From Candidatus Omnitrophota bacterium (GTDB lineage: Bacteria; Omnitrophota; Gorgyraeia; DTHP01): a DNA stretch of 64,000 nucleotides. Made by a program: the position numbers and the translations under genes. The stretch's first letter is position 1, and each line of letters begins with the position of its first letter. Positions 3,896 through 64,000 of this stretch are shown here, piece by piece. The notes beneath the pieces were generated by a model that was not told the origin of the DNA, made no database searches, and was given only the letters and a program-made list of their open reading frames with translations. Where the stretch lies: contig JAMWCW010000001.1 in the NCBI GenBank assembly GCA_023819145.1, positions 66,400 to 130,399 of the forward strand. Direction: 5' to 3'.

Positions 3896-3915
3896 AAATA
3901 TCATCAACGCAGCCC

Positions 3916-3944
3916 TTGACGATTTGCAAAAAGCGTGTTATATC
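3916..3944 (+). promoter_or_regulatory. promoter cccTTGACG-N17-TATATC (copy B), probable promoter of the 4188-18471 operon
   Basis: TTGACG at 3916-3921 and TATATC at 3939-3944. It is identical to copy A over 29 nt. Confidence 0.6.
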
Positions 3945-4187
3945 TTAATGTAGAAGAGAGGTACTTTATAAAACTTAAATTTCAATATCATAAATTAACT
4001 TTCTAGAATAAAAAGATGAGAGATTTTAATTATTTCTTTCTATTGGAAAGTGAAAAAATAGTTTCTCATTCTAAAGGGTATCAAGCCCTGATTAAAGCAT
4101 TGGAGCATGGTTTTGAAGGATTAGACAAGGAAATAGCCAAGAGGTTAATAAATTCCTATTTATATTTAAATGAAAGGAGGGAATGTA

Positions 4188-18471: not shown

Positions 18472-18480
18472 CCGGGAAAA

Positions 18481-18580
18481 ACCGACCCCACCTCGTAGGT
18501 GTCCTTTTCACTGTATTGTAAGTTGTTTTTATATGGATACTTATGTGGGACGATTTTGGCCACCTACGAGGTGGGCACGG
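18481..18580. repeat. REP-like inverted-repeat pair 1
   Basis: ACCGACCCCACCTCGTAGGTGTCC at 18481-18504 faces GGCCACCTACGAGGTGGGCACGG at 18558-18580. The cores are exact reverse complements (CCACCTCGTAGGTG and CACCTACGAGGTGG). Confidence 0.75.
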
Positions 18581-18948
18581 TTAGTTTTGGTTTGGGTGTG
18601 GGTTGAGGAAAGTAGATTTTGGGTTGAGGAGTTAGATTAAGGAAAAATAAAAAACAGAATAGAATGTTTTGAGGTGTAAAGAAAGTTTACCCCCACAATG
18701 ATAGAAGATGTCAGTGTAAGTAGATATTTATCAGTAACTTATGGATAGATGCTCTTAGAATGTAATTTTAATTTACTTTCTTATTTGCCTTATGAAAAAA
18801 GGAGGAAGATAAATTTTCTTGTTTTATAGTCGGAAAAATCTGTCTTTGGTGATTATCTAATATTCTGGCATAAATTTTGCTTACTCTAGTAACAGAAAAA
18901 ATGTCAGAATTAAAAATTGAAATAAGAAAATTTTTACCATCTCTGCCA

Positions 18949-29443: not shown

Positions 29444-29474
29444 GTTAAACAAAAGTAATTAACCCCAAACCCCT

Positions 29475-29500
29475 GCCCACCGCGTAGGTGGGCATTTTTT
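29475..29500 (+). terminator. intrinsic terminator after the 2015-aa gene, formed by the left REP of pair 2
   Basis: The stem pairs GCCCACC (29475-29481) with GGTGGGC (29487-29493). The loop is GCGTA, followed by A and TTTTTT. Confidence 0.6.
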
Positions 29501-29501
29501 C

Positions 29502-29530
29502 TTGACATAAGCTTATAAATTTGCTATATT
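29502..29530 (+). promoter_or_regulatory. promoter TTGACA-N17-TATATT for the transposase gene, located between the two REPs of pair 2
   Basis: TTGACA at 29502-29507 and TATATT at 29525-29530. Confidence 0.55.
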
Positions 29531-29622
29531 TATTATAGAGTTTAAGGGACACCTACGCGGTGGGATAGGTTTTATTAATTATAGGAGAGTATAAAGAAGT
29601 TAACGAGAGTTAAGGAGAAAAA

Positions 29623-30276
29623 ATGAGAAAGAATTTTCTGGCAGTAGGAGAAATTTATCACGTGTTGAATAAAAGTATTGCGGGTTTTCAGATTTTTAAC
29701 GATGAAGATGAATATCAGCGAATGGCTGGGCTTTTTGCCTATTATCAAAAAGAGAATCCTCCAGTTAAGTTCTCTAAGTATTTAAATTCCAATAAAAAAG
29801 GTTCTGAGGGGGAGAATACAGGAAATAAATTAGTGGAAATTATCGCCTATTGTCTTATGCCTACCCATCTTCATCTCTTATTGAGACAGATGAAAGAAGA
29901 AGGGATTTCTCTTTTTATGGGAAATGTTTTAAATAGCTACACCCGCTATTTTAATACCCGACATAAGCGCAAAGGACCTCTCTGGGAGGGTAGATTTAAA
30001 AGAATTCAAGTAAAAACCGAGGAAAATTTATTGCACCTTACCCGCTATATCCATCTTAATCCGGTTACAGCGTATCTGGTGAACAAGCCCGAGGATTGGC
30101 TTTTTTCTTCTTATCGAGAGTATTTAGGTCAGGTTGATGGTAAGGAGAAAATTTGCAATTTTGAAGATTCTTTAGAGATAGGCCCTGACTATAAAGAATT
30201 TGTGGAAGATAGAATTTCTTACCAGAGAGAACTTGCTCAGATTAAAGATTTAATAGTTGAAAACCTCTCCACCTAA
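29623..30276 (+). CDS. REP-associated tyrosine transposase (RayT, IS200/IS605 TnpA-like Y1 HUH enzyme)
   Basis: The HUH motif is in CLMPTHLHLLLRQ. The Tyr helix is LLHLTRYIHLNPV. At 217 aa the size is typical. Confidence 0.8.
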   Translation: MRKNFLAVGEIYHVLNKSIAGFQIFNDEDEYQRMAGLFAYYQKENPPVKFSKYLNSNKKGSEGENTGNKLVEIIAYCLMPTHLHLLLRQMKEEGISLFMGNVLNSYTRYFNTRHKRKGPLWEGRFKRIQVKTEENLLHLTRYIHLNPVTAYLVNKPEDWLFSSYREYLGQVDGKEKICNFEDSLEIGPDYKEFVEDRISYQRELAQIKDLIVENLST

Positions 30277-30280
30277 ACCT

Positions 30281-30377
30281 TAGACCACCTCGTAGGTGTC
30301 CTAAATCGATGATTATAAGTGTAAGAAATTATGTAGCTTATGATGAAGGAAATAGACCACCTACGAGGTGGGTACGG
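30281..30377. repeat. REP-like inverted-repeat pair 3
   Basis: GACCACCTCGTAGGTGTCC at 30283-30301 faces GACCACCTACGAGGTGGGTACGG at 30355-30377. Confidence 0.75.
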
Positions 30378-30439
30378 TTTATAACGGTAGGAAAAGGAAG
30401 GAAGAAGAGGAAAGGTAAGTGAGAGGAGGAAAGAGGGAG

Positions 30440-50758: not shown

Positions 50759-51431
50759 TCTTTTTTTATTTTTAACGATTTTTTTCTTTAGTACCGATAT
50801 TAATGCCGAAGATTTTTCCTTAGCAAGAGAAAGAATGGTTAAAGAGCAGATTGAAATAAGAGGAATAAAAAACCCTCGACTTTTGGAGGTAATGCGTAAA
50901 GTAGAAAGACACCTTTTTGTTCCTTCTTCCTATAGAATGTTTGCTTATGAAGATAGCCCCCTTCCCATCGGTTTTGGACAAACTATTTCTCAGCCGTATA
51001 TTGTGGCTTTAATGACAGAATTATTGGATTTAAAGGGTACGGAAAAGGTCTTAGAAATTGGGACTGGATCCGGTTATCAGGCAGCAATTTTAGCAGAGCT
51101 CGCCAAAGAAGTTTACACCATAGAAATCATCAAACCCTTGGCAGAGAAAGCAGAGGAGTTGCTTAAAGATTTGGGTTACGCTAATATCTTTGTAAAATAT
51201 GGAGACGGATTTTTAGGTTGGCCAGATAAAGCCCCTTTTGAGGCAATAATTGTAACCTGTGCACCTCCAGAGATTCCTCCTCCTCTAATTGAGCAGTTAG
51301 TGGAAGGAGGAAGATTGGTTATTCCCGTTGGAGAAGACTGGCAGATTTTAAAGCGCGTAGAAAAGAGAGAAGGGAAGGTTTTTATAAAGGATATTATCCC
51401 GGTGATTTTTGTTCCCATGATGAGAGATTGA
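50751..51431 (+). CDS. pcm: protein-L-isoaspartate O-methyltransferase, with a possible signal peptide
   Basis: Motifs are QTISQPYIVALM and VLEIGTGSGYQAAILAEL. The N-terminus MVNLFLFLTIFFFSTDINAE is hydrophobic. Confidence 0.8.
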   Translation: MVNLFLFLTIFFFSTDINAEDFSLARERMVKEQIEIRGIKNPRLLEVMRKVERHLFVPSSYRMFAYEDSPLPIGFGQTISQPYIVALMTELLDLKGTEKVLEIGTGSGYQAAILAELAKEVYTIEIIKPLAEKAEELLKDLGYANIFVKYGDGFLGWPDKAPFEAIIVTCAPPEIPPPLIEQLVEGGRLVIPVGEDWQILKRVEKREGKVFIKDIIPVIFVPMMRD

Positions 51432-53686
51432 TGAAAAAGAAATTGATTCTTTCTTTAATGGTGTTGGGTTTAAGCGGAATAATAGCCGAAGTTTTACTTT
51501 TGCGGGAACTTTTGATAATTTTTTATGGTAATGAGTTAACCATTGGAATAATTCTAGCTAACTGGTTAATTCTTGAGGCGATAGGAGCATACTTACTGGG
51601 TAAGAACATAGAGCATATTTTGCGAAAATTAGAAGGCTTTGTGGGGTTGGAGGTTATTTTTTCTCTCTCTTTTCCTTGGGCTATTTATCTTACGCGCATT
51701 ATCAGAGATGTTTTTGGAATTGTTCCGGGTGTTGGGCTGGGTTTGGGTCCAGTTTTTTTGTTTTCTTTTTTGGTACTTTTCCCTGTTAGCGTGTCTCACG
51801 GAGCGCTTTTTACCTTCGGGTGTAGAATTTTTTCTCTGCATGTGCAGCCGGAAGCGAAAGGAATCGGGAGAGTTTATGTTTATGAAACGATAGGAACTAT
51901 TCTTGGCGGTTTGATTTTTACCTATTTTTTAATTCCTTATCTACATTCTTTTCAGATTGCGTTCAGTATAACTTTAATAAATTTTTTGCTCTGTGTTTTA
52001 CTATTAGGAAAATTCTGGGATAAAGGTAGGACTTTAACGAGTAAAACTTTAGGGTTAGTTGTTGCCATTTTATGTTTTATCAATATTATCTTATTTACAG
52101 GAGAGGTGGAAAAGATTCATCGTTATTCTATCCGCAGACAATGGAAGGAGTATGAAGTTAAATATTATCAAAATACATTCTTTGGTAATATAGTGGTGGC
52201 AGAAAAGGAAAATGCGCTTACTTTCTTTTTTAACGGTTTACCTCTGGTTGACTTATCATCTCCGGATGTTTATTCGGTGGAGGAGTTTGCACATTTTTCT
52301 CTGCTTTCTCACGAGGCACCAAGGGATGTTCTGGTTATTGGTAAAGGAGCAGGAGGATTAATTAATGAGTTACTTAAACATTCAGTCAAAAGTATTGATT
52401 ACGTAGAGATTGACCCCCTATTTTTAAAGGCTCTTAAGAAATTTTCTAATTCGCTTATTGCAGAAGAACTTAATAATCCTCGAGTAAATATTATCTCTCT
52501 CGATGGCAGATTTTTTATTAAGAGAACAGATAAAAAATATGATTTGATTCTTGTGGGTATTATTAATCCCTGGGACTTACAGAGCAATCGTTATTTTACC
52601 CAAGAATTTTTCTCTTTGGCAAAGCGGAGTTTAAAAGATAAAGGTATTTTAGCCTTTCGTCTTCCCAGCTTGCCCCGGGCGATTTTAAATTTGAAAGAAC
52701 TCAGGGAACTCAATGGTTCAATTCTCTTTGCCTTAGAGAAGGTATATAGATGCACAAGAGTAATTCCCGGTGATGGGAATAATCTTTTTCTTGCTTCGAC
52801 GAGTAAAGAGATTACGTTGATTGATTCTAAATTGTTTATAGAGAGGATGAAGGATAGAAGAATTGCCACTTCGTTGCTTATCCCTCCCTATGTTGAATAT
52901 AGATTAGAGCCATGGTGGTATAATAATTTCTTTAATTCTCTTAAGGATGCTCCTCTTAATCTTAACAAGGACTTTAAACCCATAGCTACATTTTATAGCC
53001 TTGCCTACTGGAATGCGCTTTTTTCACCCTATTTATTAGGAATTTCACGGGGAATAGATAAAACAATTCTTTTTACGGGAATCTTTCTTCTTTGTTCTTT
53101 TGTGGTGGTATTACTATCCAGAAGAATTCGTTTAAGCATTCCCTATTCTGTTTTAACTACTGGTTTTTCGGGAATGCTTTTTAATTTAGTCTTGATTTTC
53201 GTCTTTCAGATAGTCTACGGATATGTCTTTCACTGGATAGGTTTTTTAATCACTTCTTTCATGGGAGGTGTAGCGTTTGGAGGTTTTCTTATGACAGAAA
53301 ATTTAGAAAAGATTAAAAGAGACCGTTTCTGGTTTCTGAATACAGAACTATCTCTTATCTTATTTTCAATAATCCTTCCTTTTATTTTCTTTATTATCCA
53401 CAATTTTTCAAATAATCCATTTGTTTTTCTTCTTACCGCTTTCCTTGCGGGGATATTTATCGGAGTGCAGTTTCCTTTAGCTAATAAGATCTATCTGAAT
53501 AATTGTCCTGATTTGAGTAAGACCGCTGGTTTACTTTATGGTGCGGATTTAGTAGGAGGTTGGTTTGCAGGAATATGTGGGGGGATTTTAATCTTACCTC
53601 TTTTGGGAGTTTATGGGACCTTTATGGTAATTTTTATACTTAAATTAGCTAGCTTCACTATATTCTTCTTTAGCCGGAGGTTTTGA
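51428..53686 (+). CDS. polytopic membrane protein fused to a spermidine synthase-like (aminopropyltransferase fold) domain
   Basis: It has multiple TM helices at both ends. The central region reads VLVIGKGAGGLINELLKH..VKSIDYVEIDP...YDLILVG. Confidence 0.65.
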   Translation: MMKKKLILSLMVLGLSGIIAEVLLLRELLIIFYGNELTIGIILANWLILEAIGAYLLGKNIEHILRKLEGFVGLEVIFSLSFPWAIYLTRIIRDVFGIVPGVGLGLGPVFLFSFLVLFPVSVSHGALFTFGCRIFSLHVQPEAKGIGRVYVYETIGTILGGLIFTYFLIPYLHSFQIAFSITLINFLLCVLLLGKFWDKGRTLTSKTLGLVVAILCFINIILFTGEVEKIHRYSIRRQWKEYEVKYYQNTFFGNIVVAEKENALTFFFNGLPLVDLSSPDVYSVEEFAHFSLLSHEAPRDVLVIGKGAGGLINELLKHSVKSIDYVEIDPLFLKALKKFSNSLIAEELNNPRVNIISLDGRFFIKRTDKKYDLILVGIINPWDLQSNRYFTQEFFSLAKRSLKDKGILAFRLPSLPRAILNLKELRELNGSILFALEKVYRCTRVIPGDGNNLFLASTSKEITLIDSKLFIERMKDRRIATSLLIPPYVEYRLEPWWYNNFFNSLKDAPLNLNKDFKPIATFYSLAYWNALFSPYLLGISRGIDKTILFTGIFLLCSFVVVLLSRRIRLSIPYSVLTTGFSGMLFNLVLIFVFQIVYGYVFHWIGFLITSFMGGVAFGGFLMTENLEKIKRDRFWFLNTELSLILFSIILPFIFFIIHNFSNNPFVFLLTAFLAGIFIGVQFPLANKIYLNNCPDLSKTAGLLYGADLVGGWFAGICGGILILPLLGVYGTFMVIFILKLASFTIFFFSRRF

Positions 53687-53687
53687 T

Positions 53688-54602
53688 TTGTTTAGAAAAA
53701 AAATAAAACTTTTTTCTTTAATCATCTTCTTTTCAGCGGTTATTTATTTTTCATACCTTACCTATACTAAAATCGAGCGCATAATAAGAGAAAAAGAACT
53801 GTTTAGAAAAAGGGAACTCGCCTGGACAGAACTAAGAAAAGATTTAGGAAATAAATTGAAAGAGTTCAAAGGAAAGGTAGGGATATTGATCAAAGATTTA
53901 GAGACAAACTGGGTAATTTCTTTTAATGAGGAACTTTCTTTTCCTGCAGCAAGTTTGATAAAAGTGCCCATTATGCTTGCCTGTTTTTCTGCGGTTGAAG
54001 AAGGAAGAATGAAATTTGAAGATACTGTAAAATTAAAAAATTCTGATAAAACTTCCGGCTCGGGAATATTAAAAAACTTACCCGCGGGAAAAATCTTTAA
54101 TATTGAACGCCTCGTTGAACTTATGATTACCGTGAGTGATAATACAGCTACTAATATACTGATAGAGAAATTAGGTTTTGAATACTTAAACAATTATTTT
54201 AATAAAATTGGGTTAAGAAACACTACTCTTGTACGGAGGATGATGGATTTTCGCGAGCGTAAAAAAGGAGTAGATAACTTTACTACCGCAAAAGATATGG
54301 CTTGTGTTTTTGAAAAGATTTATCGTAAACAGAAGGTAAAGGCAAATTTTGCCGATAAATCTCTTGGTTTTCTGGAGGCGCAGAAATATCGTGATCGCAT
54401 TCCTTCAAAACTACCTCCCGAAATAAAAGTAGCGCATAAAACAGGGTTAGAACGAGGTGTATGTCATGATACAGGGATAGTTTTTGGACCTAAAGGAGAT
54501 TTTCTTATTGTAGTTTTGACAGAAGGTGCAGAGGCAAAGAATGCTAAGGAATTTATTGCCGATGTCTCTTTTCGTGTCTACAGCTATTACCTTAAATTTT
54601 AG
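53688..54602 (+). CDS. class A beta-lactamase-related serine hydrolase
   Basis: The SxxK motif is in FPAASLIKVP, SDN is in VSDNTATN and KTG is in HKTGL. The start is TTG, 7 nt after ggagg. Confidence 0.7.
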   Translation: MFRKKIKLFSLIIFFSAVIYFSYLTYTKIERIIREKELFRKRELAWTELRKDLGNKLKEFKGKVGILIKDLETNWVISFNEELSFPAASLIKVPIMLACFSAVEEGRMKFEDTVKLKNSDKTSGSGILKNLPAGKIFNIERLVELMITVSDNTATNILIEKLGFEYLNNYFNKIGLRNTTLVRRMMDFRERKKGVDNFTTAKDMACVFEKIYRKQKVKANFADKSLGFLEAQKYRDRIPSKLPPEIKVAHKTGLERGVCHDTGIVFGPKGDFLIVVLTEGAEAKNAKEFIADVSFRVYSYYLKF

Positions 54603-54625
54603 AATTTAAATATGGAAAATAAAAC

Positions 54626-54654
54626 TTGACAAAAACAATTGAATAAAATAAAAT
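54626..54654 (+). promoter_or_regulatory. promoter TTGACA-N17-TAAAAT
   Basis: TTGACA at 54626-54631 and TAAAAT at 54649-54654. Confidence 0.45.
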
Positions 54655-54697
54655 AATTTTATAAAATCCTTTAAAATTATAAAAGGAGGGAAGAATA

Positions 54698-55969
54698 ATG
54701 GAGAGAAAATTTATTTTTCTTTTAATTTTATGTTTTTTTATAATTGGTTGCGGAAAGAAAGAGACAAGAGAATCTATACCCACCATTAAAGTAGCCTTTT
54801 GGGGTACTCCTGAAGAGGTAGAGATTATAGAGAATATCATTCTACCTTGGCAAAAGGAGCATCCGCAAATAAAAGTAGAATTACAACACTCCCCTTTTGC
54901 CGGTTATGTGAATAAGATTCTAACACGGATTGCTGGTGGCGCTCCACCTGATGTGATATGTGCCGAGGCAAATCTTTTTGTAAGTTTATGGAATAAAGGG
55001 ATATTTTTAAATCTTAGTCCTTTTCTCGAGAAAGAAATAGGCTTTTCTATAAAAGATTTCTTTCCCGAAGTAGTCAATCGTTTTACTGTGGAGGGGAAGG
55101 TCTATGGTATTCCTCGGGACACCGCTCCCTTTGCTTGCGTTTATTACAACAAGAAGATTTTTGACGAGAAGAATGTTTCCTATCCTACTGATGATTGGAG
55201 TTGGCAGGATTTATTAGAAAAAGCAAAAGCCCTTACTGAATATGATGAACAAGGGAGAGCCCTCTGTTATGGTTTTTACGGCTGGGCTTGGCAGAATTTT
55301 ATCTATTCTAACGGAGGTGCTCTTGTAGATAATGTAGAAAAACCTACTCTTTGTCTTCTGGACCGTCCTGAATCTATTGAGGGTTTAGAATTTTATGTCG
55401 ATTTAATTCATAAGTATAAAGTTTCTCCTACACCTACTGCTCTCATAAACTTGGGGATGGGGGTCCAGATGATGTTTATGACCGGAAGGCTAGCAATGTT
55501 TTCTTCAGGAATCTGGGAGACCCCTATTTTAAGAAAAGCAAAAGATTTTGATTGGGATGTGGTAATGTTTCCCAAAGGGCCAAAAGGCATCAGGGGGTTT
55601 GGAACAGGAGGGAGTGCCTATGGAATTTTGAAAACAACGAAATATCCTAAAGAAGCTTGGGAGGTAGTAAAGGCACTTACTAATGAAAGAGCCCAGACAA
55701 TTCTCGCAGATTCCGGACTCGCTCAGCCGGCGAATCGGAAAATAGCAGAGAGTGAACATTTTGCTTTGGATGAGAAGTTACCAAAGAATAAGAAAATGCT
55801 TAACGAAGCAGTAAAATATATTTCTTACGAACCTTTTCATGGCCGTTGGAGGGAGATTAATGAGTTGTATATTGTGCCTGAACTTGATATGGTTTTTAAT
55901 GGACAGAAGAGTGTACGGGAAGCGATTGCTAAGATTGTTCCCGATATAAATAAGTTATTGAAACAATAA
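54698..55969 (+). CDS. ABC transporter extracellular solute (sugar)-binding lipoprotein
   Basis: The RBS is aggaggg and the lipobox is FFIIGCG. The N-terminus is family-1 SBP-like (IKVAFWGTPEEVE...WQKEHPQIKVE). Confidence 0.7.
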   Translation: MERKFIFLLILCFFIIGCGKKETRESIPTIKVAFWGTPEEVEIIENIILPWQKEHPQIKVELQHSPFAGYVNKILTRIAGGAPPDVICAEANLFVSLWNKGIFLNLSPFLEKEIGFSIKDFFPEVVNRFTVEGKVYGIPRDTAPFACVYYNKKIFDEKNVSYPTDDWSWQDLLEKAKALTEYDEQGRALCYGFYGWAWQNFIYSNGGALVDNVEKPTLCLLDRPESIEGLEFYVDLIHKYKVSPTPTALINLGMGVQMMFMTGRLAMFSSGIWETPILRKAKDFDWDVVMFPKGPKGIRGFGTGGSAYGILKTTKYPKEAWEVVKALTNERAQTILADSGLAQPANRKIAESEHFALDEKLPKNKKMLNEAVKYISYEPFHGRWREINELYIVPELDMVFNGQKSVREAIAKIVPDINKLLKQ

Positions 55970-55987
55970 AAAAGAGGAGGTGGGAAA

Positions 55988-57190
55988 ATGGCGGAAGAAA
56001 TTTTTGGTGAAGAAATAATGAGCGACCGTGAAAGGAAGAACTGGGTAATTCTGGATTTGATTCGGCGTAAGGGACCAATTACCCGAACCGAAATTTCTAA
56101 GGAAACACAGCTTAATATAGTGACAGTTTCCAACTATATTAATAGTTATATTCAAAAAGGATTGGTTTTAGAAGGGGGGCTTGATGTTTCCAGCGGTGGT
56201 CGAAGACCGGTGATGGTAGAGCTTAATCCCAAGGCGGGATTTGTTGTTGGTGTCGGTCTTGACCTTTTTAATATTATAGGGCTTACTACTGATCTTCAGG
56301 CAAATGTCTTGGTTAAGGTAAAGAAACCTCGTCCTGTTGGTTCCGAGGATATGGTTATAGACAATATCGTAGATTTGGTAGATGAGTTAATGAAGAAATC
56401 TGAATTGGAACCCTCCAAGATTAAGGGTTTAGGAGTAGGCATTCCCGGAATAATAGACCGCCGAGTAGGGACAATTCGCTGGCCAAATCAGATGGGAAGT
56501 ATTTATATTTCTACTTTGAAGAGTCTATTGGAACAGAAATTTGGCATTCCTACCTTTATCGAGAATGATGCCACTGTTGCCGCCTGCGGAGAAAGAGAAC
56601 TGGAATTGGAAACAGGAGTCCAGAATCTTATATTTATGTATTCGGGAGTAGGTTCGGGGATTATTATTAATGGTCAGGTTTACCGTGGAGCAAGTGGATG
56701 TGCGGGAGAACTGGGGATTGCTAATTTTACCGAAGATGAGAAACATAAATGGGGTGGTATGGCACGTTGGGAAGCAGATTTGGGCTTAACAACGCGGGCA
56801 ATAGAAGCGATTAAGAAAGGAGAAAAGACACGGATTTTTGATCTGGCCAATGGAGATGTAAATAAGATTACCATGAAAACCGTGGTGGAAGCAGCCAAAG
56901 AAGGCGATGCATTAGCTGATAAATTGGTAGAAGAGGCGGGTATAGAACTGGGTATACGTATTGCCTACTTGGTTAACTTTCTCAATCCTGAAGTAGTGGT
57001 AATCGGAGGAGGGATTGAACGTGCGGGGGCAGTGCTTCTCGATGCTATAAAACGCACGGTGAGAGCAAGAGCGTTTGAAGAAATGGCAAATGTTGTGCGT
57101 ATTGTCCCTACCCAGTTGGGAGAAGATTCGGTTGCTATGGGTGCAGTAAGTTTGGTAATTCAAGAAATCTTTACCCATGTGATGCTTTAA
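55988..57190 (+). CDS. ROK family transcriptional regulator (wHTH plus sugar-kinase fold)
   Basis: The N-terminal HTH reads ILDLIRRKGPITRTEISKETQLNIVTVSNYI. ROK motifs are GVGIPGIID, ENDATVAACGE and GSGIIINGQVYRGASGCAGELG. Confidence 0.75.
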   Translation: MAEEIFGEEIMSDRERKNWVILDLIRRKGPITRTEISKETQLNIVTVSNYINSYIQKGLVLEGGLDVSSGGRRPVMVELNPKAGFVVGVGLDLFNIIGLTTDLQANVLVKVKKPRPVGSEDMVIDNIVDLVDELMKKSELEPSKIKGLGVGIPGIIDRRVGTIRWPNQMGSIYISTLKSLLEQKFGIPTFIENDATVAACGERELELETGVQNLIFMYSGVGSGIIINGQVYRGASGCAGELGIANFTEDEKHKWGGMARWEADLGLTTRAIEAIKKGEKTRIFDLANGDVNKITMKTVVEAAKEGDALADKLVEEAGIELGIRIAYLVNFLNPEVVVIGGGIERAGAVLLDAIKRTVRARAFEEMANVVRIVPTQLGEDSVAMGAVSLVIQEIFTHVML

Positions 57191-57230
57191 ATTCTAAAAG
57201 AATAAAGACACATAGAGAAGAAACAAAAGA

Positions 57231-57425
57231 ATGGAATGTACCCAAAAGAAAAATTTGGATTTTTGCACTTGCACTTACGAACCCTGTCCTCGTAAAGGCA
57301 AGTGCTGTGAATGTATAATCTATCATCGAAACAAGGGGCAACTTCCCGGATGTCTTTTCCCACCCCAGGCAGAGAAATCTTACGACCGTTCTCTGAAAGC
57401 ATTCATCTCTGCGTTTAAGAAATAG
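57231..57425 (+). CDS. small Cys-rich protein, 64 aa
   Basis: The Cys pattern is C-x8-CxC-x4-C-x5-CCxC...C (MECTQKKNLDFCTCTYEPCPRKGKCCECIIYH). The RBS is weak. Confidence 0.45.
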   Translation: MECTQKKNLDFCTCTYEPCPRKGKCCECIIYHRNKGQLPGCLFPPQAEKSYDRSLKAFISAFKK

Positions 57426-57434
57426 AGGGGAATT

Positions 57435-57854
57435 ATGGAAAGCAAAGATAATGGTTTAATTGAAATGGAACTTTTTAGAATCCAGATAGATGAAAATAGA
57501 GGAGAACAGGTGATTGTTCTCAAGGAAAAAAATGGCACACGCACTATGCCCATTGTTATTGGCATTGTGGAAGCTACAGCCATAAAGATGAAAATCGGTG
57601 GTTTTTCGCCTCCTCGTCCTTTGACGCACGATTTACTTAATAATACTATTAAGGAACTGGATGCCCATTTAGAACGGATTGTGGTAGAAAAACTTGAGGA
57701 TAATATTTTTTATGCTAAGCTTGTAATCCGAGATTATGTGGGTAATTTTAGAGAAGTTGATGCCCGTCCATCCGACTCTATTGCTTTAGCCCTCCGTGCC
57801 AATGCTCCTATCTTTGTACGCAACGAAGTTTTAGAAAAATTGAAGCTTACATGA
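57435..57854 (+). CDS. bifunctional nuclease (BFN/DUF151) family protein
   Basis: Motifs are MPIVIGIVEATAI, PPRPLTHDLL and DARPSDSIALALR. Confidence 0.7.
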   Translation: MESKDNGLIEMELFRIQIDENRGEQVIVLKEKNGTRTMPIVIGIVEATAIKMKIGGFSPPRPLTHDLLNNTIKELDAHLERIVVEKLEDNIFYAKLVIRDYVGNFREVDARPSDSIALALRANAPIFVRNEVLEKLKLT

Positions 57855-58897
57855 ACACCTTTGAATTTCAAGCTACAGGTATTGGGAGTTTAGGACACGT
57901 TAATTACCAGGAAGCGGTTTCTTTTGTATTAGACCTTTTTCCCGAAATTCCTTTTTGGGTTCAGCTTCCCCAGCGCTGTTTCCGAGAGAATATGTATGTT
58001 CAATTTAGTGAAGGTATTCCTGGTATTGTAGTTAAGGAAGAAGAGAGGAAGGTCTATGTTGATACACGGAAAATAACTGAAGAGGACTTGTCCAATATCT
58101 ACGAGCATTATCTTGGAGGCAAGAATGATTTTTTTGGGATAAGCAAAGAATACGCGGAGGGATTTTATGAGTTTATTGAACAGCTAAGAGCAAAAAAGAT
58201 TTCTTGCTCTTTCCTAAAAGGTCAGATTATCGGACCGATTAGTTTTATGCTTACGGTCACCGACGATTCTAAAAAACCGCTTATCTATCAGGAACAAATT
58301 GCAGACTCAATTCTTAAAATTCTTACAATGAAAGCCAGATGGCAAGTAAGAAGATTAAAAGAGATTGCTCAAAGGGTAATTATTTTCGTTGATGAGCCGT
58401 ATTTAGTTTCTCTCGGTTCAGGTTATGTGAATTTAGACTTTCGGGATGTTTTGAAGAATCTTGATGAAATGATTGAGGGTATTCGGCAGGAAAATGCCTT
58501 GGTGGGGATTCACTGCTGTGGGAATACCGATTGGGGATTGTTAACTCAGACAAAAACTGATATCATAAGTTTCGATGCTTATAATTTTAGCGAATCAATT
58601 TTAGTGTATTCTGAAGCGATAAATATTTTTATGAAACGAGGGGGGGTAATTGCTTGGGGAATAGTTCCTACGGACTCTGACGTGGAAAAACTCAGCTCTA
58701 AGGAGTTATTTAAGAAATTTATGGAAACAGTAGAAATACTTGTTTCCAAGGGATTAAATAGAGAGTTGATTTATAAGCAGTCAATAATTACTCCCGGCTG
58801 TGGTTTAGGAAGCTTTTCCTCAGAGAAAGGAGAGGTTGTTCTCCGCGCTACTTGTGAATTATCTCGTAAGTTAAGAAAAGAATTGTTTTTCAGGTAG
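57851..58897 (+). CDS. cobalamin-independent methionine synthase catalytic-domain-like (MetE-C/URO-D superfamily) protein
   Basis: IFVDEPYL, IHCCGN and ITPGCGLG resemble the MetE C-terminal Zn/substrate motifs. There is a 4-nt overlap with the upstream gene. Confidence 0.45.
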   Translation: MNTFEFQATGIGSLGHVNYQEAVSFVLDLFPEIPFWVQLPQRCFRENMYVQFSEGIPGIVVKEEERKVYVDTRKITEEDLSNIYEHYLGGKNDFFGISKEYAEGFYEFIEQLRAKKISCSFLKGQIIGPISFMLTVTDDSKKPLIYQEQIADSILKILTMKARWQVRRLKEIAQRVIIFVDEPYLVSLGSGYVNLDFRDVLKNLDEMIEGIRQENALVGIHCCGNTDWGLLTQTKTDIISFDAYNFSESILVYSEAINIFMKRGGVIAWGIVPTDSDVEKLSSKELFKKFMETVEILVSKGLNRELIYKQSIITPGCGLGSFSSEKGEVVLRATCELSRKLRKELFFR

Positions 58898-58899
58898 TT

Positions 58900-60069
58900 A
58901 TGAAATTTAATAAGCCTCTTACGCGCAGAAACTTCATAAAAAAAACCTGCCTCTTTTGCTTAAGTTTGGGGTTTTCCGGTCTCATAAAGTCTCTCCTCAA
59001 AGAAAAATTTGTCTTTGGAGATATCCTGCTTCGTCAGGGAATGCGGGAGGCAATGTTTTATGATGTTATAGATACGGAGACGGTGCAGTGTCATTTATGT
59101 CCACGTAATTGCACATTGACAAACGGTCAGCGCAGTTTCTGTCGTGTAAGGGAACCCGAGAAGGGTAAACTTTATAGTTTAGTTTATGGGCTTGCTTGTG
59201 CGGTGCATGTTGACCCGATAGAGAAAAAACCCATATTTCATATGCTTCCCGGAACGAGTTCCTTTTCTATAGCTACGGTAGGTTGCAATCTCCGTTGTAA
59301 GTTCTGTCAGAACTGGACAATTTCGCAGGTTAAGCCAGAGGAAGTTGACTACCTATATTTACCGCCACTGGAGGTTATTAAAATGGCTGAGGAAAAAAAA
59401 TGTGCATCCATTGCCTATACTTATACAGAACCAACTATCTTCTATGAGTATATGCTTGATACCGCAAAACTCGCTAAAGAAAAAAATATAAAAAATATTT
59501 ATGTCACCGCTGGCTATATTAATCCCCAGCCCGCAAGACTTTTAGCTAAATATATTGATGCGGCAAACATTGACCTTAAGGCATATGATGATGAGTATCT
59601 CCAAAATATCTGTGCCCAGAGACTCGAGCCTCTTCTTGAAGCAATAAAGTTGTTTAAGGATTTAGGAGGCTGGGTAGAGATTACTAACTTAATTCTTCCC
59701 ACATTGAATGACAAAATGGAAAAAATTCGCCAAATGTGCTACTGGATAAAGAAGAATTTAGGTGCGGATACCCCTATACATTTTTCAAGATTTTCTCCAA
59801 TGTATAAGATGGTTCATTTACCTTCTACACCAGTTTCTACCTTGGAGGAGGCAAGAAGGGTAGCCATGGAGGTTGGGCTTAACTATGTTTATATCGGAAA
59901 TGCTCCCGGACATCCCGGAGAACATACCTACTGTCCGGGATGTAAAAAAATACTTATCGAAAGAAAAGGATTTTTTCTAACCCAATATAATTTAAATAAA
60001 AATAGATGTAAATATTGCAAGTGCGAGATTGCCGGAATCTGGCCTGAAAAATATTCTTTAGTTGATTAG
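58900..60069 (+). CDS. amrS: AmmeMemoRadiSam system radical SAM enzyme with a Tat-type N-terminus
   Basis: Motifs are CHLCPRNCTLTNGQRSFCRVR, DPIEKKPIFH and GCNLRCKFCQNW. The N-terminus is LTRRNFIKKTCLFCLSLGFSG. Confidence 0.8.
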   Translation: MKFNKPLTRRNFIKKTCLFCLSLGFSGLIKSLLKEKFVFGDILLRQGMREAMFYDVIDTETVQCHLCPRNCTLTNGQRSFCRVREPEKGKLYSLVYGLACAVHVDPIEKKPIFHMLPGTSSFSIATVGCNLRCKFCQNWTISQVKPEEVDYLYLPPLEVIKMAEEKKCASIAYTYTEPTIFYEYMLDTAKLAKEKNIKNIYVTAGYINPQPARLLAKYIDAANIDLKAYDDEYLQNICAQRLEPLLEAIKLFKDLGGWVEITNLILPTLNDKMEKIRQMCYWIKKNLGADTPIHFSRFSPMYKMVHLPSTPVSTLEEARRVAMEVGLNYVYIGNAPGHPGEHTYCPGCKKILIERKGFFLTQYNLNKNRCKYCKCEIAGIWPEKYSLVD

Positions 60070-60080
60070 AGGTTCATCCC

Positions 60081-60109
60081 TTGACGCTCTCCTAAGAATA
60101 TGCTATCTT
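60081..60109 (+). promoter_or_regulatory. promoter cccTTGACG-N17-TATCTT for the 60162 gene
   Basis: TTGACG at 60081-60086 and TATCTT at 60104-60109. Confidence 0.5.
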
Positions 60110-60161
60110 TTATATTAGAGAGATTAAATTACTTTTTAAATTAAAATAAAAAGGTGTTTTT

Positions 60162-61886
60162 ATGATGAATAAGAAAAAATTATGTATCACAATTGTATTT
60201 TTAACTTTATTCTTATCAGCTGGAGATATCTGTTTTGCCCGTCGAATACCCTCATATTTTAGTCTTTCGCAAATTCTTAACGCGGCGTATGTTCGAGGAT
60301 ATCTTACCCCAGAAGAGATAACTGCCCTGTATCGAAGATCTTCCGGAAAGGCAGATTTAACAGATATGCAAGGTGAGGTCAAACTTGCCATCTTACTTGA
60401 TGGGAGGTCTCTTCCTGTCAGGGTTTATGGCGGATATATCGATGTGGGACAAGACAGATTCGTTATTCAGATTAAAGGGGAAGAAGAAACAGGTTTATAT
60501 AATGAAATTATTTTCCAAGAAGGAAATGCAGGAAAACCTTTTGTTATAAATCTAAGGACCGGCGGGACCATCAGCATGGAAGAGAAAGACGAAAAAAGAG
60601 GAACAGCAAGAGATGGGCTTAAATCAGAATTACCATATATCCAGGTTGGTTCTACGAGGTGGGATTCCAGCCAGATTGGCGGAGAAGAACTGCTTACCTT
60701 AGTAAATTGTGTTTCACGGGTATTGGATTTAGGTATGGTTCCTTTGATTACGCATGGGACTGATACGATGGAGATCACCGCATTTATTCTCAGTCTTTTG
60801 TTTCCTAATAGATTTATGGTTATGACCGGTGCTTTTGATGCTGCCAACACTCCCGGAGGAGACGCTCCTATTAATTTTAGGTCTTCCCAGCAATTAGCCG
60901 AAAGTGGTAATGTTCCAGCACATCTCTATGTAGTGATGAACAATAAAATTCATTTGGGCTCACGGCTGGTGAAAGTAGGGACGTCTAAAGAATATGGATT
61001 TTTAAGTTATGGTGGCCATATTGGAGAAATAGATGAAAACGGTGTGATTCGGTTTAATAACTCTTTTCTGGTTGAAGAAAAGAGTTTTTCCTCCACTATA
61101 CTTGACCCCACAAAATACGGAATTTCTGATACGGTGTTATTTTATAGTAACGCTTACTTACCACTTATTGCTATCAAGACACTAACCACACAATTAATCA
61201 CCAAAAAGGAATCTGGTGGAAGACCGGGTTTAGTTATAGAAGGAAGTCTCCCCCCAGGAAGCGAACCTTTCTTGGATATGCTTTTTCAGAGAGGTATTCC
61301 CGTATTTGTAGAGGATGTTAATCAGGAAATTACAGGCGTTTTTAAAATCCCCGATTGGCTTAGTCCTTTGCAGGCTTGGGCAAAACTCAGTTTATTGCTC
61401 AATCAATTTGAGAACGAGGTGATACCAGATTTAATGCTTTTAGATATAGCTGGAGAAAAGGTTTATCACGATTATCTGTGGATAAAAAAGGCAGAAGAAG
61501 TGTCTCGACCTTACAGTGAAAGGATTCCTCGTCAGAAAATCAGCGGAAATTTCTATTCTAATGCAGGGAGAGCAGTGAGTTTTGTTTTGACCTTTCCTGG
61601 CTCAATGTCAAAAGCAGTTTTGAAATCAGAGATAGATAGACTTTTGGCAACACCTGCCCAAGAAAAGATTCTTGTAATTGAAGGCGCAGGAAATGGTAAT
61701 GTTGACTTGCAGTTAAACGATTTGCTAAGCTTTGCGCTGAATAAAGGTATTAAAGTTGTAGTAATTGCCCGTCCAGTTACAGGCAGAGCAGATCTAAGCT
61801 ATGATGTAGCACTTAAATTAGATTCCCGCTGTATACATGCGGATGGTTTGGGTAGGGACTATTTGTTGAGCTTACTTGAGCCATAG
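60162..61886 (+). CDS. L-asparaginase/glutaminase-fold protein with extra C-terminal asparaginase-C-like modules, the leader and the RR motif
   Basis: Motifs are TGGTIS, LITHGTDTME, MVMTGAFD and later VIEGAGNGNV...GIKVVVIARPVTGRAD. The leader is LCITIVFLTLFLSAGDICFARRIPS, with RR at nt 60240-60245. Confidence 0.65.
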   Translation: MMNKKKLCITIVFLTLFLSAGDICFARRIPSYFSLSQILNAAYVRGYLTPEEITALYRRSSGKADLTDMQGEVKLAILLDGRSLPVRVYGGYIDVGQDRFVIQIKGEEETGLYNEIIFQEGNAGKPFVINLRTGGTISMEEKDEKRGTARDGLKSELPYIQVGSTRWDSSQIGGEELLTLVNCVSRVLDLGMVPLITHGTDTMEITAFILSLLFPNRFMVMTGAFDAANTPGGDAPINFRSSQQLAESGNVPAHLYVVMNNKIHLGSRLVKVGTSKEYGFLSYGGHIGEIDENGVIRFNNSFLVEEKSFSSTILDPTKYGISDTVLFYSNAYLPLIAIKTLTTQLITKKESGGRPGLVIEGSLPPGSEPFLDMLFQRGIPVFVEDVNQEITGVFKIPDWLSPLQAWAKLSLLLNQFENEVIPDLMLLDIAGEKVYHDYLWIKKAEEVSRPYSERIPRQKISGNFYSNAGRAVSFVLTFPGSMSKAVLKSEIDRLLATPAQEKILVIEGAGNGNVDLQLNDLLSFALNKGIKVVVIARPVTGRADLSYDVALKLDSRCIHADGLGRDYLLSLLEP

Positions 61887-62010
61887 GGAATTAAAATCCT
61901 TCTAATTACTTTTTCATTGCTTATTATCCCACGGAGTGAACCTCTGATTCTTTTCTAGATTTTAGATAAATTTGTACGGAATTAGTAGAGAACTATTAAA
62001 TTTAATTTCC

Positions 62011-62039
62011 TTGACAAGCAGTCAGATAAGTTCTAAAAT
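62011..62039 (+). promoter_or_regulatory. promoter TTGACA-N17-TAAAAT
   Basis: TTGACA at 62011-62016 and TAAAAT at 62034-62039. Confidence 0.45.
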
Positions 62040-62078
62040 ATTCCCCAATTATTGTGAAAAAAATCACAAATTTATAAA

Positions 62079-63134
62079 ATGCCTCTATACTATTTCCCCA
62101 GAGCCAAGTGTTTAGAATTCTTATCTCTTTTAGAGAAAGAATATGAGCTTTATCTCCCTTCGGTAATAGAAGGTAAAGGTATATCTTGCGAATTCGGTTA
62201 CAATTTACCGATAACCGATTTCACACTGGTGAAATACTCATCTTCTAAAGAATCCGATTTATTCTTTAATTCTTATCGAACCGTAGAGCCTTTAAAAACA
62301 TTTTTTACTTTTCCTAAAGAAAAACTTGTTTCTAAGAAAGAAAAATTTGCCATTTTGGGAGTTAAAAATTGCGATTTATTCTCTTTAAAAATTCAGGATT
62401 ATGTTTTTTTAGAAGGAATAGTTTCTGACCCTTTCTACCGAGCGAGGAGAGAAAACTCTTTAATTATCTCTGGAGATTGCACTGCTTTTAAAGAAGTATG
62501 TTTCTGTTTGTCTTTGGAAATAAATCCCTATCCTGGGGATGGTTTTGATATAAACCTCTCTCCTTTAGAAGACGGTTTTTTGGTAGAGGCGGGTTCTTTA
62601 AAAGGTGAAGAGATAATTAAGAAAGGTAAAGGCATTTTTTCCTTAGCGCAAAATGAACAGATTGCCAAACGGATTGAAAACAGAGAGGCTTTTAAGAAGA
62701 GTTTGGATAAACATATTCAATTCCATAATATTCCTAAAAAAGAGGTTCTGCAAAAAATAGTCAAAGATGGATTTAGTTCTTCTTTATGGCAGGAAGAAGC
62801 TCTCCGTTGTGTAGAATGTGGAGGATGTAATTTATCTTGTCCCACTTGTCACTGTTTTTTACTGGCTGAAGATAGATTTGGTAATGCGCACGAAAAGGTG
62901 CGCCTCTGGGATGCCTGTCTTTATGCCAATTTTGCTAGGGTAGCAGGGGGAGCTAACCCTTTGCGTTATCGTTATCAACGTTTGCGTAATCGCTATTTGA
63001 AAAAATTTGATTTTTTCCCGGAGAATATTTCTTTGTTTGCCTGTTCTGGCTGTGGAAGGTGTATTGAGGTTTGTCCGGCAAAGATTGACATCAGGAAAAA
63101 TCTAAAAGAATTAAGTGTAAGGTGTAAAGTATAA
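62079..63134 (+). CDS. 4Fe-4S dicluster protein, AsrA / sulfhydrogenase-beta-like
   Basis: The cluster motifs are CVECGGCNLSCPTCHC and CSGCGRCIEVCP. Confidence 0.6.
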   Translation: MPLYYFPRAKCLEFLSLLEKEYELYLPSVIEGKGISCEFGYNLPITDFTLVKYSSSKESDLFFNSYRTVEPLKTFFTFPKEKLVSKKEKFAILGVKNCDLFSLKIQDYVFLEGIVSDPFYRARRENSLIISGDCTAFKEVCFCLSLEINPYPGDGFDINLSPLEDGFLVEAGSLKGEEIIKKGKGIFSLAQNEQIAKRIENREAFKKSLDKHIQFHNIPKKEVLQKIVKDGFSSSLWQEEALRCVECGGCNLSCPTCHCFLLAEDRFGNAHEKVRLWDACLYANFARVAGGANPLRYRYQRLRNRYLKKFDFFPENISLFACSGCGRCIEVCPAKIDIRKNLKELSVRCKV

Positions 63135-63203
63135 AGTATGTATGATTTTTTTTGAATAAGCGGGAATTTATATCCTGTATATTTCATATTGAATAATACT
63201 AAG

Positions 63204-64000
63204 ATGGATAATCCTTATCAACCTCTAAAAGCAACTTTAGAAACGATAATCACGGAAACGCCGAATATTAAAACTTTTGTGATGAAACCGGAAAAAGATT
63301 TTTCTTTTAAAACAGGGCAGTTTATTGAAGTTTCTTTTCCTGGTTTTGGAGAGGGACCTTTTACTCCCTCCTCTGACCCAGAGGTTAAGAATAGATTAGA
63401 AGTAACAATTATGAATGTCGGGAGACTTACTTCTAAACTCCATAGCCTTAGTGGGGGAGAGGTATTGGGGATACGTGGACCATATGGCAAAGGTTATCCT
63501 TTGGATAAATTTGTGGATAAGGACGTTTTAATAGTTGGTGGAGGAGTGGGACTTGCTCCTTTACGCTCTCTGCTTTTTGCCCTTTTTTCTGATATTAAGA
63601 GGTATAATAAAGTCATCTTGCGTTACGGAGCCCGTTCTCCCCAAGATATTGTTTATAAAAATTCTCTTCCCGAATGGGGCAAAAGAGAAAAAGTAGATGT
63701 TTTGGTTACTGTAGATGTCGGAGATAATAGTTGGAAAGGGAATGTGGGTTTGGTCACTTCTATCCTCAAAGATTTGCCTTTGGAGATAAGTAGGGCGGTA
63801 GCGGTTGTTTGTGGGCCACCGATAATGATGAAGTTTGTTACCTTGAAATTAGTGGATTTGGGTTTTGGTGCTCAGGATATCTATCTTTCAATGGAAAAGA
63901 ATATGTCCTGTGGTTTGGGAAAATGTGGGCATTGTCGACTGGGAAAATACTATGTCTGTCGCGATGGTCCGGTGTTTACCTATCAAGAGATGAAGGATAT
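63204..64000 (+). CDS. FAD/NAD(P)-binding plus 2Fe-2S oxidoreductase subunit (AsrB / PyrK / sulfhydrogenase-gamma-like), 3' end cut by the window
   Basis: ATG 63204 opens a frame that runs to the window end. It encodes FKTGQFIEVSFPGFGEGPF, LIVGGGVGLAPL and CGLGKCGHCRLGKYYVCRDGPVF. It is missing from the ORF track because it has no stop codon. Confidence 0.7.
   Translation, partial: MDNPYQPLKATLETIITETPNIKTFVMKPEKDFSFKTGQFIEVSFPGFGEGPFTPSSDPEVKNRLEVTIMNVGRLTSKLHSLSGGEVLGIRGPYGKGYPLDKFVDKDVLIVGGGVGLAPLRSLLFALFSDIKRYNKVILRYGARSPQDIVYKNSLPEWGKREKVDVLVTVDVGDNSWKGNVGLVTSILKDLPLEISRAVAVVCGPPIMMKFVTLKLVDLGFGAQDIYLSMEKNMSCGLGKCGHCRLGKYYVCRDGPVFTYQEMKD

Follow-up and report, generated by a model that had tools for sequence, protein, structure and literature searches.

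In this study, we analyzed a 64,000-nucleotide (nt) stretch of a Candidatus Omnitrophota genome (GenBank assembly GCA_023819145.1, contig JAMWCW010000001.1, positions 66,400 to 130,399; hereafter, the window), and we found that the asparaginase-like gene beginning at position 60162 belongs to a family of genes whose products begin with a distinctive leader. We refer to this family, which is defined in the present analysis, as the RR leader family; its members carry a basic n-region, an uncharged hydrophobic core of about 10 to 19 amino acids (aa), and an Arg-Arg pair. Gene 60162 is a true dispersed member of the family; it has its own promoter, and its cassette is missing in a relative whose gene order is otherwise the same. 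On the reading that we favor, to which we assign a probability of roughly 60%, the cassette would carry a targeting leader, its product would be one of a clade-specific set of extra enzymes placed outside the cytoplasm, and the TTGACG element of its promoter would be a derived feature of one sub-clade.

The RR leader and its distribution

The 574-aa protein encoded by gene 60162 starts MMNKKKLCITIVFLTLFLSAGDICFARRIPS. Its n-region has a net charge of +3 and its core spans 15 aa (family medians, +2 and 13), and the Arg-Arg pair at residues 27-28 (codons CGT CGA, 60240-60245) forms part of the motif F-A-R-R-I (residues 25-29). When scored with a leave-one-out matrix of the other leaders, the motif reaches 8.8 bits, a value above 99.7% of random 35-aa stretches (P ~0.003), and its rank within the family is low (6/47). 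Membership is also backed by the composition of the protein, the type of its promoter, and its domain associations.

Within the window, 11 genes bear the leader: those at 287 and 1362 (the latter on the reverse strand), the PGK-, GAPDH-, FBA-, PFK-, kinase-like, aminotransferase-, PPDK_N-, and PEP-utiliser-like genes, and 60162. They are spread over six separate transcription units, with 60162 some 40 kb from the extra glycolytic enzymes of the main block, and the other signal-bearing proteins of the window (lipoproteins, TolC-, MFP- and others) have no RR leader. Thirty leaders (from the window and loci L002, L004, and L005) were aligned on the Arg-Arg pair together with their codons; 44 were used for the core and charge figures and 47 for the motif matrix. 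The pair is present in 30/30 aligned leaders, preceded mostly by L, A, or F, and followed by V, I, A, or T in 26/30 and then by K, R, or H in 25/30. Because its Arg codons vary freely among these 30 leaders, between CGN and AGR, the constraint is on the peptide and not on the DNA. Over the set of 44, the n-region has a median net charge of +2 and the core a median length of 13 aa, while the Arg-Arg pair falls at residues 27-42, some 5-25 residues past the core, in the context hydrophobic-R-R-[V/I/A/T]-[K/R/H]. As read from the sequences, the dimensions of the leader are those of a signal peptide.

Outside the window, leader-bearing blocks were found in at least 8 other Omnitrophota lineages, and all genes of the syntenic block carry the leader in L002, L004/L006, L005/L007, L008, L009, L010 (Ca. 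Saelkia tenebricola), L029, and L031. The blocks of these relatives also encode TIM, an FBA-PFK fusion, and a GlpX-type FBPase, which widens the repertoire. Among PFK-like orthologs the motif is retained down to ~33-36% identity, and PFK-like homologs from Gracilibacteria and Peregrinibacteria (candidate phyla radiation, CPR) and from Altiarchaeota are without it. In the FBA-PFK fusion of L008, the leader of the PFK moiety is missing at the junction, which reads ...GWGW-ESPYAVY-ITDQALLDEANL...; therefore, there is one leader per polypeptide, as expected for signals that target or anchor a protein. The leader was matched by none of the Pfam or NCBIfam models, sorting-signal models included, text searches of the Omnitrophota literature found no description of it, and an all-against-all BLASTP comparison found no domain common to the leader proteins after the leader itself. 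With its six transcription units in the window and its orthologous blocks in other lineages, the leader is a conserved, portable N-terminal module and not a single-operon peculiarity. We also considered a mobile DNA module consisting of promoter plus leader; this was ruled out, as the 5′ regions have no DNA similarity except in one pair of promoters (2263 and 3916) and the Arg codons vary. No Rfam family was found in the window.

The cassette and the promoters of leader-bearing genes

As the earlier note on this DNA had observed, gene 60162 sits among unrelated housekeeping genes, namely, those for a BFN nuclease, a radical-SAM protein, Fer4_22, and an FAD/NAD oxidoreductase. A relative, L121 (GCA_023818555.1), is collinear with window positions 53812-64000 at ~74% nucleotide identity and has the same order of genes (beta-lactamase, SBP, ROK, DUF6485, BFN, a 346-aa gene, radical SAM, Fer4_22, FAD/NAD oxidoreductase). 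By blastn, window 53812-60052 matches L121 469-6682, and window 62006-63097 matches L121 6702-7802. Fer4_22 begins 54 nt past the radical-SAM gene in L121, and window 60053-62005 has no counterpart there. The cassette is thus a discrete indel, and from its sequence the promoter, gene, and weak terminator-like site appear to make up a self-contained, monocistronic 1.95-kb unit just upstream of the conserved TTGACA promoter of Fer4_22. Of the two possible polarities of the indel, gain in this lineage is favored, since there is no close homolog of gene 60162 elsewhere. The whole leader block occupies the same slot, immediately 5′ of the orthologous Fer4_22 gene (45% identity), in L002, L009, and L010. 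A 19-nt imperfect inverted repeat (79% complementary; 60065-60083 and 61930-61948) brackets the promoter and gene of the cassette, its right arm overlapping the terminator-like hairpin. As an insertion footprint this repeat may be due to chance, given the many 9-16-nt chance matches in the same region.

The stretch 60070-60161 contains catcccTTGACGctctcctaagaatatgcTATCTT, followed by AAGGTG and then by the ATG at 60162. The sequence cccTTGACG-N17-TATCTT, which had been reported upstream of a leader-bearing asparaginase-family gene, is borne out by our reading of the sequence, by Pfam, and by the leader alignment. The promoter has the features of a sigma-70-type extended -10 promoter, with 5/6 matches in the -35 hexamer, a spacer of 17 nt, TG at 60102-60103, and 4/6 matches in TATCTT (60104-60109); the inferred 5′ untranslated region is ~45 nt long.

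The window contains 8 occurrences of TTGACG-N16-18-TAnnnT where 1.1 would be expected, and 0/100 shuffles reach 8. Five of these sites are intergenic and face leader-bearing genes, the remaining three being within coding sequence; the promoter at 3916, whose -10 is TATATC, is the sixth leader promoter and, as claimed previously for the main block, has the same -35 variant as 60081. All six leader promoters (146, 2255 on the reverse strand, 2263, 3916, 18949, and 60081) have TG at -15/-14 and a TAT-type -10, and their upstream flanks are C-rich. In contrast, the six intergenic TTGAC-type promoters of non-leader genes (29502, 31839, 43701, 49153, 54626, and 62011) are all TTGACA, mostly with a TAA-type -10 and T-rich upstream flanks. 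TTGACG is therefore found in 6/6 leader promoters versus 0/6 others within the 64 kb (Fisher p=0.002, or p=0.005 with duplicated and divergent promoters collapsed). The -35 G is also conserved at five TTGACG promoters 5′ of orthologous leader genes in the sister genomes L004 and L005, so that the co-occurrence of TTGACG with the leader, for which the earlier note had proposed a search, holds in the window and at these five promoters. At the orthologous Fer4_22 promoter, the A of TTGACA is kept in seven lineages. The six leader promoters are not independent, because those at 2263 and 3916 are near-identical copies (97% identity over 34 nt and 80% over 55 nt, 3915-3969). Searches with looser promoter patterns barely exceeded shuffles (24 sites versus 17 expected). 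The flanking CCC, which had been put forward as a common feature of leader promoters, is ruled out as a signature of these genes: it is generic, with cc or ccc also preceding TTGACA at the Fer4_22 promoters of the window (62011), L121, L002, and L009.

The shared TTGACG fits a common regulatory input, and promoter copying and shared descent could also account for it; a leader-gene regulon is a plausible hypothesis. It is a real possibility, short of even odds, that copying and common descent within one sub-clade account for TTGACG entirely, so that these would be ordinary strong housekeeping promoters carrying no regulatory code. The near-identity of the 2263 and 3916 promoters fits such an account, as do the orthology of the G-type promoters of L004 and L005 to those of the window and the fact that no regulator or alternative sigma factor gene is evident within the window. 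Moreover, no position of the -35 hexamer carries less information for sigma-70 than position 6. A further point tells against a leader-specific promoter class: the leader blocks of L002, L008, L009, L010, and L029 are under TTGACA with an extended -10. Because distant lineages use TTGACA for the same blocks, the leader system itself does not include TTGACG, a trait derived in one sub-clade. The claim that leader and promoter together define a family beyond one operon must therefore be divided; the leader half stands, with six transcription units in the window and at least 8 other lineages, and the promoter half does not extend to those distant lineages. Copying and descent would, nevertheless, have to explain why DNA similarity among the six 5′ regions stops at the consensus positions everywhere but in the 2263/3916 pair, and why the 60081 promoter lies within an independently placed cassette. 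The 6:0 versus 0:6 split, combined with the TAT versus mostly TAA -10 elements and the C-rich versus T-rich flanks, is also hard to obtain from descent alone.

Three further observations concern these regions. The divergent promoters at 2255 (reverse strand) and 2263 (forward strand) lie back to back (2225-2293), their -35 boxes 5 nt apart, and form a 32-nt imperfect palindrome. A small open reading frame between the 3916 promoter and the GAPDH-like gene has no similarity to the equivalent one in L004 and so is unlikely to be a gene. Window 51426-53811 is another indel when compared with L121 and encodes a 752-aa membrane protein with a spermidine-synthase domain (51428-53686); at this site in L121, PCMT is directly followed by the beta-lactamase-like gene. 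The coordinates of the features discussed here are collected in Table 1.

Table 1. Features of the cassette, its gene, and the other leader-associated elements of the window
Feature	Start	End	Strand	Basis
TTGACG-type promoter of leader-bearing methyltransferase gene (287-1210)	146	174	+	Pattern scan
TTGACG-type promoter of leader-bearing gene 1362-2210	2227	2255	-	Pattern scan
TTGACG-type promoter of leader-bearing PGK-like gene	2263	2291	+	Pattern scan
TTGACG-type promoter (-10 TATATC) of main block, near-identical copy of 2263 promoter	3916	3944	+	Pattern scan
Main block of leader-bearing genes (GAPDH-, FBA-, PFK-, kinase-like, aminotransferase-, PPDK_N-, PEP-utiliser-like) plus S8 subtilase without RR	4188	18471	+	Pfam, leader scan
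TTGACG-type promoter of 1378-aa protein with variant leader (VRTQVI)	18949	18977	+	Pattern scan
Cassette, 1.95 kb (promoter, gene, terminator-like site)	60053	62005	+	blastn versus L121, counterpart missing
-35 hexamer TTGACG, ccc directly 5′	60081	60086	+	Sequence reading, pattern scan
Extended -10, TG plus one base plus TATCTT, 17 nt past -35	60102	60109	+	Sequence reading
Shine-Dalgarno-like AAGGTG, 5 nt 5′ of ATG	60151	60156	+	Read directly
Coding sequence, 574 aa, leader-bearing divergent asparaginase/glutaminase-family protein	60162	61886	+	Open reading frame, Pfam, alignment
Leader, aa 1-32 (MMNKKK n-region, LCITIVFLTLFLSAG hydrophobic core, DICFA, RR, IPSY)	60162	60257	+	Leader alignment
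Asparaginase N-terminal catalytic domain, aa 131-299 (TGGT, HGTDT, conserved Lys)	60552	61058	+	Pfam, alignment
Asparaginase C-terminal-type domain, aa 504-557	61671	61832	+	Pfam (weaker match), alignment
Weak terminator-like hairpin, followed by T-rich tail	61932	61956	+	Sequence scan
Contrasting TTGACA-N17-TAAAAT promoter of non-leader Fer4_22 operon, cc flank, kept in relatives	62011	62039	+	Pattern scan, blastn

The asparaginase-like protein and the other cargo enzymes

The product of gene 60162 belongs to the L-asparaginase/glutaminase superfamily (PF00710). Its N domain matches the Pfam model at E=6e-24 (85 bits versus a gathering cutoff of 22.5), and the catalytic Thr (TGGT), the Thr-Asp pair (HGTDT), and the conserved Lys align with those of solved asparaginases and of the homolog P0002. 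Like the bacterial type I and type II L-asparaginases (PF00710/PF17763), the protein combines an N catalytic domain bearing these residues with a C domain containing GxGNG, and it is probably catalytically competent, as judged from sequence. Unlike them, it is 574 aa long instead of ~330 aa, has an extra region of ~100 aa after the leader, and has a degenerate extra C-like domain inserted between its N and C domains; the NCBIfam cutoffs for the type I and type II enzymes are not reached (TIGR00519, 57.9 versus 260.5; TIGR00520, 53.8 versus 314.3). The closest relatives found by a word-indexed search, a metagenome locus scan, and an exhaustive HMMER search, the last covering 1.8 billion representatives, are only 30-37% identical, and the exhaustive search recovered only ~10 homologs with the long architecture. 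An AlphaFold model built from a two-sequence alignment had a mean predicted local distance difference test score (pLDDT) of 39.5, too poor for a fold search.

Enlargement, divergence, and a low Lys content are shared with the other cargo of the leader. The median Lys fraction is 0.049 in leader proteins versus 0.086 in others (Mann-Whitney p=1.5e-4), Gly being higher in the former, and the 60162 protein, at 0.052, groups with the leader set; a single one of the 25 non-leader proteins has so low a value. The leader-bearing products form an additional set of long, Lys-poor paralogs beside canonical copies in relatives. In the Saelkia metagenome-assembled genome (MAG), a 960-nt PfkA, a 1011-nt Gap, and a 1182-nt Pgk are listed on other contigs, while the long PFK-like and GAPDH-like genes are on contig 490801, which is L010 (PMC8542988, Table S5). 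A canonical gap-pgk-tpi-secG operon is present in another relative, L119. It is in these relatives that canonical copies were seen. Very long glycolytic genes are listed for other Omnitrophota MAGs as well, for instance a Pgk of 8,058 nt in Ca. Aceula lacicola and a Gap of 2,607 nt in Ca. Kaelpia aquatica (PMC8542988, Table S5), so that enlargement or fusion of enzyme paralogs is widespread in the phylum.

Several individual features of the cargo and its surroundings were also recorded. The PPDK/PEP synthase is split into a PPDK_N gene (14877-16064) and a PEP-utilizers plus PEP-utilizers_C gene (16084-18471), with a separate RR leader on each half, and in the FBA-like leader protein (6645-8798) a ComEA/PsbU-type helix-hairpin-helix (HhH) domain (aa 402-445) lies ahead of the aldolase domain. 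A PFK-like subfamily with an N-terminal extension of ~100 aa (...ERLSATRMSVL...) is common to Omnitrophota, Gracilibacteria, Peregrinibacteria, Peribacteria, and Altiarchaeota MAGs (L011-L033), and its copies outside the leader-bearing Omnitrophota lineages are without the leader. In the 1378-aa repeat protein 3′ of the main block (19002-23138; L005 16525-20736), two copies of another conserved motif follow the signal (A-K-VRTQVI-RNSP and A-R-VRTQVI-KE). Repetitive extragenic palindrome (REP)-like sequences (core CCACCTACGAGGTGG) occur in pairs at 18466-18596, 29467-29573, and 30285-30388, namely, directly 3′ of the main block and on either flank of a Y1_Tnp (IS200-like) gene (29623-30276), an arrangement expected of a REP-associated tyrosine transposase.

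Possible targeting or anchoring, and relation to the giant proteins

The anatomy and conservation of the leader, the boundaries of the cassette, and the promoter statistics are direct observations; export, processing by cleavage at the Arg-Arg pair, and co-regulation are our inferences. In the mechanism that we propose, a sigma-70-type promoter (TTGACG, 17 nt, TG-n-TATCTT) and a Shine-Dalgarno site would drive expression of the three-domain protein (N, degenerate C-like, and C), whose first ~30 residues would constitute a clade-specific targeting module made up of a Sec-type signal peptide (charge ~+2, core ~13 aa) and then the Arg-Arg pair. This module, attached once per polypeptide to the extra long, Lys-poor paralogs of central-metabolism enzymes in one Omnitrophota clade, would direct them out of the cytoplasm, to the envelope or beyond, and the asparaginase-like enzyme would be counted within this extra set. 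The Arg-Arg pair may be a second site for sorting or processing, at which the S8 subtilase encoded in the main block (13609-14769), a candidate protease, might cleave. The TTGACG -35 would be a derived feature of the leader promoters of a sub-clade, compatible with common regulation and also with promoter copying and shared descent.

Several observations, in addition to the promoter evidence given above, weigh against this reading. With respect to its leader, 60162 is a weak member of the family: its motif score is in the lowest 15%, its core-to-RR distance of 5 aa is the shortest, and at +3 (RRIP) it has Pro instead of K, R, or H, the sole Pro among the 30 aligned leaders. No leader-bearing ortholog of 60162 was found in the databases searched, none of the distant homologs (30-37% identity) has the Arg-Arg, and some of them (P0045, P0046, and P0002) have ordinary signal peptides; periplasmic asparaginases with ordinary signal peptides are common. 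As for the proposed protease, only the Ser (GTSFAAP) and Asn motifs of the S8 subtilase align to solved subtilases, the catalytic Asp and His could not be aligned, and the gene, which is present in the blocks of the window and L005, is absent from the sampled blocks of other lineages. Finally, enzymes dependent on NAD, ATP, or pyridoxal phosphate (PLP) are hard to rationalize outside the cytoplasm, and two arginines after a hydrophobic helix would also suit a membrane anchor facing the cytoplasm.

This last point introduces the main rival on mechanism, namely, that the leader stays uncleaved and anchors the enzymes in the membrane on the cytoplasmic side, the Arg-Arg pair acting as a positive-inside determinant instead of belonging to an export signal. 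Such an anchor would better suit the cofactor needs of the enzymes, and the presence of Arg-Arg plus a further basic residue after the hydrophobic segment in 25/30 leaders, together with the restriction to one leader per polypeptide, agrees with it. In this regard, the authors of a preprint on giant genes caution that the predicted extracellular location of glycolytic domains may be a topology error (10.1101/2023.11.21.568195). We nevertheless consider an anchor unlikely. The N-terminal flank of the core is also positive, and after the core, which is short, comes a polar stretch rich in Ser, Tyr, Gly, and Pro, as is typical of signal peptides; the Arg-Arg pair lies 5-25 residues beyond the core, away from the membrane interface. 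Moreover, the block includes a secreted-type S8 protease with its own signal peptide, and the HhH domain of the FBA-like protein is of the ComEA/PsbU-like type, which usually occurs outside the cytoplasm. It is distinctly improbable that 60162 is simply an ordinary periplasmic asparaginase with a generic Sec signal peptide, a chance Arg-Arg, and a sigma-70 consensus promoter, unrelated to the main block: type II asparaginases are typically periplasmic, and the signal peptides of P0002, P0045, and P0046, the nonbasic +3 residue and low family score of 60162, and the yield of the loose promoter scans are all compatible with this, but it does not account for the motif score (P ~0.003 against chance), the Lys-poor composition, the -35 G common to all other leader promoters and found on no TTGAC-type non-leader promoter, the fusion of an asparaginase-like module with a PPDK-like module in a giant protein, or the length of 574 aa with its extra ~100-aa N-terminal region, duplicated C-like domain, and score of 58 bits against an NCBIfam cutoff of 260.

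Returning to the targeting module, its closest parallels are Sec signals with an added sorting motif (the lipobox, YSIRK, and the Bacteroidetes lipoprotein export signal). Like these, the RR leader has a tripartite N-terminal layout, which ends in a short conserved motif through which a further step might be directed, and it is portable across unrelated protein families, once per polypeptide. Unlike them, it has no lipobox Cys, and its motif matches none of theirs; in 60162 the sequence is FLSAGDIC, in which no Cys directly follows SAG as [LVI][ASTVI][GAS]C would require, whereas true lipoboxes are present in the window on genes 30419, 49207, and 54698. With Tat signal peptides the leader shares an invariant Arg-Arg in the N-terminal targeting region and an association with cofactor-containing enzymes. 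However, the Tat motif S/T-R-R-x-F-L-K precedes the hydrophobic region, while in the RR leader, 60162 included, the Arg-Arg pair lies after it and no second hydrophobic stretch follows. The radical-SAM protein encoded 5′ of the cassette (58900-60069) has a canonical Tat-type N terminus, with TRRNFIK before the hydrophobic stretch, and so provides a contrast to the RR leader within the window.

A third parallel is the removal of leaders by S8 subtilases, as with LanP (NisP/EpiP), kexin/furin, and the mycosins of the type VII secretion system (T7SS). Arg-Arg followed by V or I resembles the sites cut after Arg by LanP and kexin, and in the window and L005 the block contains a signal-bearing S8 subtilase (L005 14908-16050) that itself lacks the Arg-Arg, reading AYPRSYP in the window and AYQPGVYP in L005. 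The parallel is incomplete in that the subtilase is restricted to these two blocks among those sampled, only its Ser and Asn could be aligned, and cleavage here is presumptive. Taken as a whole, the leader is best classed among N-terminal sorting signals, as a new form on an unusual set of cargo, not previously described in the literature searched.

The Omnitrophota giant proteins ("Archaeovorins") described by West-Roberts et al. (2023) contain TIM, GPI, FBPase, PGM, FBA, and PPDK domains (10.1101/2023.11.21.568195). Their glycolytic domains are predicted, subject to the caveat mentioned above, to be extracellular, and S8 and C39 peptidase domains occur alongside them (10.1101/2023.11.21.568195). 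In another MAG we found a protein of 5,503 aa (P0064; L117 6001-22512) that combines an asparaginase-like module (residues 4590-4915) with a PEP-utilizers_C domain, its gene being followed by a PilZ gene. P0064 has one hydrophobic segment, at its N terminus, and its modules are set apart by nine [KR]SELR motifs, one of which immediately precedes the asparaginase-like module; from their sequence and placement, these motifs look like polyprotein processing sites. The window genes and the giant proteins are alike in domain repertoire (TIM, FBPase, FBA, and PPDK, with PEP-utiliser plus asparaginase-like domains in P0064) and in their association with membrane or signal segments and S8 peptidases. 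They differ in that the window modules are separate genes of 260-810 aa in an operon, each with a leader, and not parts of one polypeptide of at least 5,000 aa. In sequence, then, the leader genes of the window look like unbundled versions of giant-protein modules.

Omnitrophota are widespread, tiny, and uncultured bacteria for which predatory or parasitic lifestyles are suspected. A broader, and in our estimation doubtful, extension of the targeting reading is that this clade runs a second glycolytic and amino-acid-converting set of enzymes (PFK, FBA, TIM, GAPDH, PGK, PPDK, FBPase, aminotransferase, and the asparaginase-like protein) outside the cytoplasm, either in the envelope or inside or on an attached host cell. 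These enzymes would be sorted by an undescribed signal composed of a signal peptide plus Arg-Arg, possibly processed by the S8 subtilase, and switched on jointly via a distinct promoter class, their genes being unbundled giant-protein modules. Should the RR leader prove to be a genuine sorting signal, it would provide a simple sequence rule with which to list Omnitrophota proteins placed outside the cytoplasm, and that list would include a near-complete extra glycolytic set together with amino-acid-converting enzymes. It would also link the puzzling metabolic domains of the giant proteins to genes of ordinary size that can be expressed and assayed. The asparaginase-like cassette, for its part, suggests that a gene in a new location can be equipped with both the tag and a promoter to match, as would be expected of a modular system for targeting and expression and not of a one-operon accident.

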